From an uncultured Chlamydiae bacterium (GTDB taxonomy: Bacteria > Chlamydiota > Chlamydiia > Chlamydiales > SM23-39): 64,000 nt of DNA. The notes under the pieces were generated by a model. It ran no database searches and had not been told where the DNA came from. It worked only from the letters and a program-made list of their open reading frames with translations. Shown here piece after piece: positions 32,850-41,955 of this stretch (positions within the stretch are counted from its first letter, which is position 1; each line of letters starts with the position of its first letter). The position numbers and the translations under genes are program-made. The stretch covers positions 96,001-160,000 of the forward strand of contig CAVSSM010000001.1 of the NCBI GenBank assembly GCA_963730605.1, given 5' to 3'.

Positions 32850-35774
32850 CTAGAAGAAGGTTTGGTTTTGCGCTGAATTGTCATTGACTTGGCCATTGGT
32901 CACTGTGGCTTGTGTGAATTGCCCGATATAGATGGCAGGGGCGGTAGACGAAGGGTTCGTCGAATATTGATTGACCCCTACCCAGTATGCATAGTCTTTG
33001 AACCACTGGATGCCTGCGCTTGCGTTCAGTTTTAAGTTCATGAGGCTGAAATTGTATAGGGTCTGGTATTGTAAAGTCTGCGGACCCGTCAGAGACGTTT
33101 GCAAGACAAGGGCGGCATACGTATTCATGCCGAGCCAGCAATTGAAATCCTCGGCGATGCTCTCTTGGTTCCTCCCAAGGGCATTCGGCTGGTATTGAAT
33201 GCCGTTGGCCACCCCGTGTCCTTCCCAAGGAAGGCCGTAACGGTCGTAGGGAAGGTCGGGATCATAGATCTGAGCGGAAGTGTTGTTCGTAAAGGGATTG
33301 TGAGTATCCCTCCAAAGAAAATCGACCATATCTCTTATTTTATATGTCCCATTATCCGCACCGATCACAGGCAAATCGATCCAAAGCGTCCCTGAGCCAT
33401 AGGTCATTTCCCAATTTGTGATCATGGCTGCTGTGAGCAACCGGTATCCTGCAAAAAAATGGTGATCGTTGTATACATAGTTGCCAAAATCGACCCCGCT
33501 ATCGACATACTGCTGCAAGTTGGGCCCATTTGCATAAGTTCCATCTCCCCCGGCTCCATTGACACAAATTCCTCCGGCGCTCCGGTCAGCCACAAAATAG
33601 TTGGCGCCAGGCGTCCTGCCGATCAGGTATGCGGTGAGAATGCTTTTTGCATTGTCAATATATTTCTGCGTAGCTGCGGCAATTAGCTGGGGTGTGGAAG
33701 GAGGGTTGGTGTTTTGCATGTAATACGCGATATAGAGCGCCGTTTTTGCCAACATGAAACCTACCTTGCCTGCATTATAGGCATCGCCGGTGACGTTCGC
33801 TTCCGGGACATAAGGAAGAGGAATGACTGTATTTTGAATGTAGCCAAGAGCTGTCGACAATAAGGAAAGCTGCTGTGTTGTGAAAGTGAGGGAGCTGGGG
33901 ATGAATAGGTCCGTAGGTCCATACCAGGAGAAGGGGATCCCGCCTTCCAAGTAGGTGACCACTCCGCTGATGCTTTCCGCGGCATAAAGAGTTCCCTTAA
34001 TCGTATCGTTAAAAATAAAGGGTTGAAAAGGCTCGCCTGTCCCTGGTGCGGTGTTCACGTAACCCGGGGTAGATCCTTGGAGATATTTCCAAAAAGGGAA
34101 GCAAACCAAGGTCTTGTTCATCCCATCCCCAGGCGGGACAGCGGAAGAAAGGGTATAGGTCCAGCTGATCGTTGTCGCCGTGGTGCTGATGTCAGCCTGG
34201 ACAGGGACGTAGCGGCGGTGAGCATTGAAGACGCTGACGTTATTCACAGTTCCGGGCGCATAGATCGGGAGCGTCCGGCTTGCCTCTTGGAAGGTATTGA
34301 TATCGGATGAGAGATTGGATGCCATGATGATGTCGAATTGTAGAGTGAACAAATTGGTGGCAAGATCTGACCCGTCCGTATAGGGAGGCATCCCCGAGGG
34401 ATTGAGCTGGGAGAATAAATCCGAGTAGTAAGTTTGAGCCAGGGCTGAATTGGCAGTTGCGATCGGAGGCAGGATATCGGATAAAGCTTGAGATGTGGGA
34501 TATTGGATAGGCATGTTGGTGTTTATCCAATTGGAGCCAATGACGTTAAAGGCCAGATCCGTAAAAAGAGCGGACCACCTTGGGTTCGGGGTAGTCCCCA
34601 CCCCTGGCAACAGCATGTACAAATTCATCCCCGTAGGCGCGATGGCATGCACTTCCGCCGTCTCCCACCAGGACGGCGAAGTAGGCGTTAAGGGACATCC
34701 AGTCTGTTCGATCGGGCAAGACGAGGGTGGGTTCGAGGTATCGGCGGCATTGCCAATATCTTCCGGCATAAAGTAGCTCGCCTGGTTCCAAGGCGAGCCC
34801 TCGGTGGGGTTCGCATCATTCGTGGATACGCTGGCTAGCCTTAAAAATCCCGTATAGGCGGGCTGCGAAGAGTCTAACGTTAATATGAAGTGGCTGCCGC
34901 TTGCGCCAGCGACAGTGAAAGTGAGCGGATCATCATTTGGGTCGACGACGTATAACAGATAAACGGCAGGGCCTAAAGGAGAGTAGCGCTGCACAAAAAT
35001 TTGGAAAATTTTACCTGTTACGGTGCTCCCGAATGGATAATTTGCAACATTGCCCATGGTAACACCGTCCGTGCTAACGCTCATGAGTATTCCTGTATTC
35101 CCCCCATTTACAACGGGAGGATTGCTGATCGCCAGAGCTGGATGGAGATTGTCATAATAGACGTCATGAAAAACATTGCCTGTCACATTATAATCGGTAA
35201 TACCCCCGGGAGTGCCGTTATTCGGAGTATAGGTTAAGACGCAGGTCTCTGAATTCACGACGTTTGTCGAAATACTGAAATAATTGTTCGATCCTCCGTT
35301 GGTTTCGGTAGCGCTAAAGAAGAAAGTGATCCGATTGTCAGCGGTCAGGTTCGGCAACTGGACATTTTGGTTGAAATTGAATTGGGCAACCGTCACAACT
35401 GGGCCCGTCTGCGCCATGCCGACCAAATAAGGTCCCGTCCTCGTCCTATACGTTCCTGCTCCCGCTGCGACGCCCGTTTCAGTCCACAAAGTAGGATCGA
35501 TCGCACACTCATTTTGGAATAATTGCCAGTTATTCGTAGTGGGGAGTTGCTGCGGGTTAAGGCGATTGACCGTTTGAACCGGGGCGTTTTGATTCACGGA
35601 AACGGAACCAAACGCACAAAGAGGAGGAAGAGGCTCTGTTTGACAATTGCCGGCAGTTGTCCCGAGGTTTCCCTGATACCCTGTGATAACGCTTGGATTT
35701 GGACATTGGCAGAATAGATTCCAAGGGATCCAAAATCTGATGCATAGGAGACTCAATCTTAAAAATATTCTCAT
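32850..35774 (-). CDS. Secreted glycoside hydrolase family 81-like (endo-1,3-beta-glucanase) protein
   Basis: 'DFGNYVYNDHHFFAGY' and 'GRNQESIAE' match the GH81 motifs DFGNxxYNDHHFHYGY and NQESxSE. Signal-peptide-like N-terminus. Confidence 0.75.
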   Translation of the reverse strand: MRIFLRLSLLCIRFWIPWNLFCQCPNPSVITGYQGNLGTTAGNCQTEPLPPLCAFGSVSVNQNAPVQTVNRLNPQQLPTTNNWQLFQNECAIDPTLWTETGVAAGAGTYRTRTGPYLVGMAQTGPVVTVAQFNFNQNVQLPNLTADNRITFFFSATETNGGSNNYFSISTNVVNSETCVLTYTPNNGTPGGITDYNVTGNVFHDVYYDNLHPALAISNPPVVNGGNTGILMSVSTDGVTMGNVANYPFGSTVTGKIFQIFVQRYSPLGPAVYLLYVVDPNDDPLTFTVAGASGSHFILTLDSSQPAYTGFLRLASVSTNDANPTEGSPWNQASYFMPEDIGNAADTSNPPSSCPIEQTGCPLTPTSPSWWETAEVHAIAPTGMNLYMLLPGVGTTPNPRWSALFTDLAFNVIGSNWINTNMPIQYPTSQALSDILPPIATANSALAQTYYSDLFSQLNPSGMPPYTDGSDLATNLFTLQFDIIMASNLSSDINTFQEASRTLPIYAPGTVNNVSVFNAHRRYVPVQADISTTATTISWTYTLSSAVPPGDGMNKTLVCFPFWKYLQGSTPGYVNTAPGTGEPFQPFIFNDTIKGTLYAAESISGVVTYLEGGIPFSWYGPTDLFIPSSLTFTTQQLSLLSTALGYIQNTVIPLPYVPEANVTGDAYNAGKVGFMLAKTALYIAYYMQNTNPPSTPQLIAAATQKYIDNAKSILTAYLIGRTPGANYFVADRSAGGICVNGAGGDGTYANGPNLQQYVDSGVDFGNYVYNDHHFFAGYRLLTAAMITNWEMTYGSGTLWIDLPVIGADNGTYKIRDMVDFLWRDTHNPFTNNTSAQIYDPDLPYDRYGLPWEGHGVANGIQYQPNALGRNQESIAEDFNCWLGMNTYAALVLQTSLTGPQTLQYQTLYNFSLMNLKLNASAGIQWFKDYAYWVGVNQYSTNPSSTAPAIYIGQFTQATVTNGQVNDNSAQNQTFF

Positions 35775-41955: not shown

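Follow-up and report, generated by a model that had tools for sequence, protein, structure and literature searches.

The genes considered here have their closest described counterparts in two separate groups, namely the two-partner secretion (TPS, type Vb) pairs FhaC/FhaB and CdiB/CdiA together with the HMW1A/B/C and EtpB/A/C sets, and the glycoside hydrolases of family 81 (GH81). According to one paper, endo-β-1,3-glucanase is the sole activity reported for GH81, only three bacterial members had been characterised, and the products are laminaribiose and glucose (PMC9609564). In chlamydiae, a TPS operon is mentioned, without a glucanase, in a passage of the Rhabdochlamydia helvetica genome paper (PMC6490308), and no published description of a TPS-GH81 set was found in the literature on GH81, glucanase and hemagglutinin in these bacteria. 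Such a set, consisting of tpsB, tpsA and a gene for a GH81-like enzyme, occupies positions 32850-41955 of the window, i.e., of the whole 64,000-nucleotide (nt) stretch of DNA from an uncultured Chlamydiae bacterium analysed here. We propose, with a probability of roughly one half, that the three genes form a conserved module acting on external β-1,3-glucan, that this module was transferred within the phylum, and that the split of tpsA in this assembly is an artefact. The genes and their internal features are as follows (aa, amino acids; ORF, open reading frame).

40060..41955, minus strand: tpsB, 631 aa, Omp85-type two-partner-secretion transporter
37597..40059, minus strand: tpsA 5' ORF, 820 aa; signal peptide, TPS secretion domain, β-helix repeats
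37641..37650, minus strand: tpsA frame break in this assembly; the ORFs on either side are in different frames
35771..37600, minus strand: tpsA 3' ORF, 609 aa; end of the β-helix, Cys pair, polyproline, conserved C-terminal tail
36176..36565, minus strand: proline run of 130 codons, a (CCACCT)n microsatellite
35847..36016, minus strand: dispersed, imperfectly palindromic repeat of ~170 nt, lying within the tpsA tail with the frame kept
32850..35774, minus strand: GH81-like glycoside hydrolase gene, 974 aa, N-terminal signal peptide

Four long minus-strand ORFs fill the region 32850-41955 head to tail. The stop codon of tpsB (TAA, 40062-40060) is directly followed by the ATG of tpsA at 40059, leaving a junction of 0 nt, and the tpsA stop (TGA) and the start of GH81 at 35774 lie in a common ATGA, a 4-nt overlap. 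Both junctions had been described in this form in the initial annotation of the stretch and were borne out. The three genes are packed as a single unit.

The same genes were found together in other chlamydiae. A scan for GH81, in which each species was represented by one genome, yielded 15 related loci (L001-L015); the phylum sample comprised 400 scored genomes. The triad put forward in the initial annotation recurs in the neighbourhoods of these loci: a TPS gene lies beside GH81 in 14 of the 15 (L004 being cut by a contig end), and a contiguous tpsB/tpsA/GH81 triad is present in 10. L001 and L009 are cut, and in L014, which has all three genes, tpsB is separated from tpsA by three unrelated ORFs. 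With the exception of L014, tpsB adjoins tpsA in all relatives in which both genes were seen (10/11). Three gene orders occur. The order tpsB-tpsA-GH81 is found in the window, L002 and L013, the order GH81-tpsB-tpsA in L010, L011, L012 and L014, and a GH81 gene convergent with tpsB-tpsA in L003 and L005-L008. TPS genes also accompany GH81s of another, distant subclade (26-29% identity): L028 has tpsB, tpsA and GH81, and L020 has two tpsA and two GH81 genes; in L033, which belongs to the distant subclade as well, the end of a proline-rich ORF cut by the contig precedes GH81.

Exactly the same 14 of the 400 genomes have matches to the close GH81 clade and to the TpsA C-terminal half, and the link between TpsA and GH81 is far above chance. 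That the three genes are merely neighbours without a functional link is highly improbable, given this shared distribution of both subfamilies and the persistence of a TPS gene beside GH81 through the three gene orders. Since the adjacency survives rearrangement and deep divergence, it can be taken as strong evidence of a functional tie, and the three genes represent a real, conserved module of environmental Chlamydiota rather than an oddity of one contig. The combination, originally noted as not known from Chlamydiota, is not peculiar to this genome (14/400). Fused TpsA-GH81 proteins were not found among longer proteins in a word-indexed search, though this counts as weak evidence. In the exhaustive profile search, the 150 best matches were all 1451 aa or shorter.

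Some of the related loci show further features. In L014 (Simkania sp. record, 9974-22303), TpsA has 1616 aa and carries tetratricopeptide (TPR) repeats in its C-terminal part. A gene of ~700 aa with an inverse-autotransporter β-domain (PF11924, 41.5 bits in L013) adjoins the module in four relatives (L005:1427-3526, L006:12916-15024, L007:11518-13617 and L013:1989-4121). A homologue of this gene with 40% identity is located elsewhere in the genome of the window (contig C1:369-1460).

The assignment of the third gene to GH81 is based on profiles, conserved residues and a structural model. The 974-aa protein matches Glyco_hydro81C (PF17652) with 58.7 bits against a cut-off of 25.6, so the profile check suggested for this gene did return a GH81 match, and the same domain was found in 21/21 members of a wider chlamydial GH81 alignment. 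The GH81 N-domain (PF03639) is not matched in the window protein and is matched in 4/21 relatives (best E-value 1.9e-15); the corresponding region gives a weak profile alignment to the PDB (independent E-value 0.47), and the model has a β-sandwich at residues 110-316. A profile of 23 GH81 homologues matches PDB 4k35 of Rhizomucor miehei at an E-value of 3e-8. Five residues, D770, Y777, E871, S872 and E875, are invariant in 23/23 close homologues and align with D475, Y482, E553, S554 and E557 of 4k35, respectively; D475, E553 and E557 are the catalytic residues of this enzyme, RmLam81A. The model (mean predicted local distance difference test score, pLDDT, 63.5; predicted template modelling score, pTM, 0.67) was compared with known structures using Foldseek, and the best 14 matches were all GH81 structures (1e-12 to 4e-8), the next family following at 5.8e-4. 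The alignments to GH81 structures comprise 857-900 columns and cover the whole length.

When 1.84 billion representatives were searched exhaustively with HMMER, 36 proteins were found at E ≤1e-30, followed by a gap. Ordinary GH81s were matched in this search at 1e-15 or weaker, with the match confined to the region of the catalytic motif. The product of the third gene is a strongly divergent GH81 with a predicted three-domain fold and with the putative catalytic Asp/Glu/Glu kept, and its subfamily is a distinct, distant branch of GH81. The protein search with the wider GH81 alignment returned the same 24 clusters only and did not reveal an origin outside the phylum. The enzyme has an N-terminal signal peptide, as judged by eye, and lacks a TPS domain. 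A Cys-bearing N-terminal extension of ~25 aa is found only in the tightly TPS-linked clade. No carbohydrate-binding module was found in the window GH81.

The product of tpsB is an Omp85-type TpsB that is very divergent. In an AlphaFold2 model (pLDDT 64), its fold is nearest to CdiB 6wil (4e-19), CdiB 6wim and FhaC 4ql0 in Foldseek, with BamA after these. The triplet R503-G504-Y505, which we take to be the loop-6 motif of Omp85 proteins, is invariant in 12/12 TpsB orthologues. The window protein scores 20.6 bits against ShlB (PF03865), i.e., under the cut-off of 22.7, while its orthologues in L002 and L028 exceed the cut-off with 36.6 and 33.1 bits. A profile built from the 12 orthologues matched zero solved structures among the PDB sequences. 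Thus, the three families named at the outset can be maintained, TpsA and GH81 through PF05860 and PF17652 scores above cut-off and TpsB through its modelled fold and its orthologues.

In this assembly tpsA is one gene split between two frames, which the initial annotation had overlooked, like the microsatellite nature of the proline run and the repeat in the tail. Across the junction the downstream frame stays open, and a β-helix repeat unit bridges it. The 820-aa ORF matches the TPS domain PF05860 with 74.8 bits (cut-off 33.5) and TIGR01901 with 57.5 bits (cut-off 29.1). The 609-aa ORF had zero Pfam matches and shares 47-67% identity with the C-terminal portion of the relatives' single TpsA. 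In 12 relatives, TpsA is a single ORF of 1042-1258 aa. Two contigs, one each from the soil runs X1 and X3 of two other studies and at least 99% alike to the window, have an additional base within 37645-37648, so that both tpsA ORFs fall in one frame; these are the only contigs that cover the break, and both carry the extra base (2/2). Furthermore, the essential gene secA of this assembly (contig C11:51334-54262) is scattered over at least three frame changes, and indel errors are likely throughout this genome assembly, which has 2.2 Mb and an estimated completeness of 83%. Since the contigs of X1 and X3 restore the frame and secA is broken too, the split of tpsA is probably an assembly error, and a strain-specific mutation is the less likely cause. 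Programmed frameshifting was considered and set aside, as the relatives have one ORF and the other contigs restore the frame. In addition to X1 and X3, three short contigs of another run, X8, which is labelled with a single coded organism and not as soil, are 90-95% like tpsA over 36600-37458. They may belong to a related strain tied to that organism; their share is too small for conclusions, and they provide no host evidence. RNA runs were absent from the sequencing runs listed for the region.

When the two ORFs are read together, the tpsA product is a TPS-domain exoprotein in which a β-helix is followed by a Cys pair, a linker rich in proline and finally a conserved tail of ~50 aa. The proline run consists of 74 CCA, 55 CCT and 1 CCG codons, with near-strict CCA/CCT alternation, and was detected by the tandem-repeat program TRF as 65 copies of period 6 (390 nt). 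Linkers rich in proline stand at this position in the relatives too, some of them ~80-130 aa long, and the longest pure proline runs there are 2-16 residues. As assembled, the run of 130 Pro represents a shorter proline-rich linker that a microsatellite has expanded to an extreme degree; the linker itself is a family-wide trait, the pure and extreme form being peculiar to tpsA of this genome. The polyproline stalk of the initial annotation is present in the assembly as 130 consecutive prolines, whereas the 'stalk' is better described as an expanded microsatellite, considering the short pure runs of the relatives. Behind the linker, the conserved tail of ~50 aa is common to the 12 relatives. 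In the window, this tail is broken by the ~170-nt repeat (35847-36016), with the reading frame kept. Five further copies with 90-93% identity are present in the genome (C1:320211-320377, 527162-527326, 535546-535716 and 637628-637797; C2:402497-402659), and each copy matches its own reverse at ~70%. The presence of this genome-specific repeat inside tpsA argues against a chimeric join.

The repeat family resembles miniature inverted-repeat transposable elements, and one reading frame is open in every copy. A distant relative of its peptide is encoded 5' of tpsB in L002 (2561-2737).

As an alternative, the GH81-like protein could be a periplasmic accessory of the TPS pair, acting on the bacterium's own glycan or on TpsA itself through trimming, maturation or release. 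The strict co-occurrence and adjacency with TpsA would be explained in this way, and the periplasm is the only compartment that a protein with a signal peptide and no TPS domain can demonstrably reach. The conserved tail behind a proline-rich region resembles the periplasmic prodomain of FhaB, and a comparison can be drawn with the HMW1ABC and EtpBAC operons, whose third genes are carbohydrate-active. Against such a role, there is no TPS gene in the vicinity at 11 of the 14 loci with more distant chlamydial GH81s, and therefore GH81 can work without TPS; the catalytic residues correspond to those of an endo-acting polysaccharide hydrolase, and no β-1,3-glucan of chlamydial origin is known to us, although no search was aimed at one. 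We consider an accessory role unlikely and prefer to place the substrate of the module outside the bacterium.

A chlamydial origin of the sequence is supported. For each of the 15 related loci, the record title names Rhabdochlamydiaceae, Simkania, Parachlamydiales, Chlamydiae or 'Verrucomicrobia' metagenome-assembled genomes, and the nucleotide-transporter family PF03219 has four matches in the genome of the window. The coordinates of one sampled genome from the same order agree with those of the Simkania record of L014. Within the phylum, the distribution of GH81 is uneven. It was found in 0/68 further genomes sampled from the family of the window, four of its own genus included, and in 15/90 sampled genomes of the family that includes the records labelled Rhabdochlamydiaceae, 12 of them with members of the close clade. 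The GH81 tree joins the window to L001/L002 (Candidatus Acheromyda pituitae record) as sister, with a support of 96, and places them together within the g79+g105 group (support 99), inside Rhabdochlamydiaceae. An approximately unbiased (AU) test rejected a clade of Rhabdochlamydiaceae only, without the window (p = 0.016). The tree of TyrRS, encoded 14 kb away in the same window, places it with its own genus (98) and outside a monophyletic Rhabdochlamydiaceae (93). As GH81 nests inside Rhabdochlamydiaceae while TyrRS groups with the genus of the window, the trees indicate that the module would have reached this genome by transfer within Chlamydiota, from a Rhabdochlamydiaceae-like lineage. The identity to the nearest relatives is only 62-69%, and the transfer would therefore be old or the donor unsampled. 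In the Rhabdochlamydiaceae (f9) loci the module lies between secA and mnmE; in the window's genome these two genes are ~4 kb apart on contig C11, without the module. The initial annotation had suggested horizontal acquisition, which is retained in view of the conflicting trees and the 0/68 family members, with the qualification that the source appears to lie within Chlamydiota.

Here the module is surrounded by copies of IS630 and IS3 insertion sequences and by a truncated PPDK fragment, and the G+C content at third codon positions (GC3) of the cluster is 0.49-0.56, as compared to 0.59-0.64 in four neighbouring housekeeping genes. These surroundings and the GC3 difference, along with tpsA in two frames, the dispersed repeat in its tail and a 390-nt microsatellite within the gene, could be taken to mean that the module is a decaying relic or a misassembly and is functionless in this genome. 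We regard this as very unlikely: the break is absent in 2/2 other covering contigs, and secA is broken in this assembly as well; neither the inserted repeat nor the microsatellite disturbs the frame; both GH81 and tpsB are undamaged, with all invariant residues kept; and the five further copies of the tail repeat in the same genome speak against a chimeric join. A conserved, transferred module remains our preferred interpretation. The features at the borders of the cluster are listed below.

32808..32836, minus strand: hairpin 3' of the GH81 stop, perfect 12-bp stem
32738..32802, strand not assigned: left arm of a 65-nt inverted repeat, 94% complementary to 42931-42995
42931..42995, strand not assigned: right arm of the 65-nt inverted repeat, partner of 32738-32802
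41973..42002, minus strand: promoter-like site 5' of tpsB, TTGTCA-18-TAAAAT, 10/12 matches
31223..32348, minus strand: IS630-type element, DDE_3 transposase at 31242-32285 (Pfam DDE_3 and HTH_33)

The hairpin that was said to close the unit was found as the perfect stem at 32808-32836. It begins 14 nt past the GH81 stop, with a folding energy of -26.7 kcal/mol (z -3.8; equalled in 0/200 shuffles), and has no U tract; it is absent from the output of the terminator scan. The promoter scan of the region gave 15 sites against 10.1 ± 3.7 in shuffles, and the site upstream of tpsB is therefore weak. The 65-nt repeat is present in four genome copies and folds at -35.6 kcal/mol; one inverted pair, 10.1 kb apart, brackets the cluster. 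This pair could represent the ends of a mobile unit or mere intergenic hairpin elements.

The IS630 element occurs genome-wide in 14 copies with at least 99.7% identity, the copy at the module lying ~500 nt 3' of GH81. With so many near-identical copies in a 2.2-Mb genome, it is an actively expanded insertion sequence. It was considered as the vehicle of the transfer and set aside, since with 14 copies throughout the genome its proximity is unspecific. Within the window there are two identical IS630-type (DDE_3) transposase genes, at 21104-22147 (plus strand) and 31242-32285 (minus strand), and a HicB-like antitoxin gene (20668-21075) is located directly 5' of an IS630 copy. An IS3-type element with ~5 genome copies lies within 28900-31301 and includes an rve integrase gene (29125-29958). 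The PPDK fragment of 295 aa (PPDK_N only, 30414-31301) adjoins this IS3 element and ends at the IS630 copy; the PPDK gene was probably disrupted by insertion.

As for the function of the module, TpsB would export TpsA to the cell surface. GH81 would cross the inner membrane by the Sec pathway and reach the surface or the medium by another route; two secretins are present in the genome of the window. TpsA and GH81 might then act together on external β-1,3-glucan, belonging to the wall or the store of a host cell or of prey; TpsA would give contact or anchorage, and GH81 would cut the polymer. A more specific form of this proposal, which we hold to be quite unlikely, is that TpsA and GH81 constitute a surface glucanase apparatus with which a group of soil Rhabdochlamydiaceae and, through the transfer, the present lineage breach or feed on eukaryotes with β-1,3-glucan walls, such as fungi or oomycetes. 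The proline-rich linker would in that case set the reach of the apparatus, and the hexanucleotide repeat would let its length vary with the frame kept. To our knowledge, hosts of this kind have not been reported for chlamydiae.

Alternatively, GH81 could be a nutritional enzyme released in the vacuole or cytoplasm of the host, where it would use a storage glucan of the laminarin, mycolaminarin or paramylon type; TpsA would then have a separate task, and the link between them would be one of co-regulation. The laminaribiose and glucose named as GH81 products in the cited paper (PMC9609564) would suit such a role, as would one GH1 match (C1:55102-56328), one GH3 match (C2:127838-128824) and the secretins of this genome. 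The order of GH81 and tpsBA is variable, with convergent genes in some loci, so co-transcription is not universal. On the other side, an adjacency kept through three rearrangements and between GH81s that are 26-29% identical exceeds what is usual for co-regulation. This explanation seems to us rather doubtful, and joint action of TpsA and GH81 on external glucan is favoured. The GH1 and GH3 enzymes could process β-glucoside products or serve unrelated roles.

Several observations weigh against the favoured interpretation. The GH81 is 12-13% identical to the solved enzymes and ~200-250 aa longer, the confidence of its model is middling, and its substrate could differ. The window TpsB is below the Pfam cut-off for ShlB, and its profile matches no PDB sequence. 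With the TPS domain lacking in GH81, export by TpsB is not expected, and the passage of the enzyme over the outer membrane is conjectural. The loci of distant chlamydial GH81s without a TPS gene nearby (11/14) also count here, as do L015, which is without tpsB within 10 kb, and L014, whose GH81 has an in-frame stop (TAA). The extra base in tpsA comes from a single low-depth contig per run (2.9 and 3.6), and the group used in the AU test was defined after the tree had been seen. The terms 'adhesin' and 'attach-and-digest' and the β-glucan-bearing host, which were used from the beginning for this locus, are conjectures drawn from the genes.

The hosts of most environmental chlamydiae are unknown, though these bacteria are abundant in soil. 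A TPS pair strictly tied to a β-1,3-glucanase is a testable clue in this respect, pointing to the walls of fungi or oomycetes, to stores of algae or euglenids, or to callose. Few accessory genes are tied to type Vb systems, and a hydrolase now joins them. As judged from the genes, type Vb secretion with a GH81 partner gene would be a new arrangement.

The module shares with FhaC/FhaB and CdiB/CdiA the adjacent genes for transporter and exoprotein, the N-terminal TPS domain and the β-helical body, and the modelled fold of TpsB is nearest to FhaC and CdiB. As in FhaB, a proline-rich region is followed by a conserved extreme C-terminus, which in FhaB belongs to the prodomain. Unlike these pairs, the chlamydial proteins have no detectable sequence similarity to them past the TPS domain, toxin and immunity genes are absent here, the fixed partner gene is a glycoside hydrolase, and the TpsB profile is without a PDB match. 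The HMW1A/B/C and EtpB/A/C sets likewise combine a TPS pair with a third, carbohydrate-active gene. Their third gene encodes a cytoplasmic glycosyltransferase that decorates the exoprotein, whereas here it codes for a putative GH81 hydrolase with a signal peptide, and its position relative to tpsBA varies. With RmLam81A (4k35), BhGH81 (5t4c) and CtLam81A (6fop) the enzyme shares the whole-length fold of the model and the GH81 C-domain, and with RmLam81A also the Asp, the two Glu and the neighbouring Tyr and Ser at aligned positions. It differs from all three by its 12-13% identity, by the ~200-250 additional residues and by having no carbohydrate-binding module that could be found.

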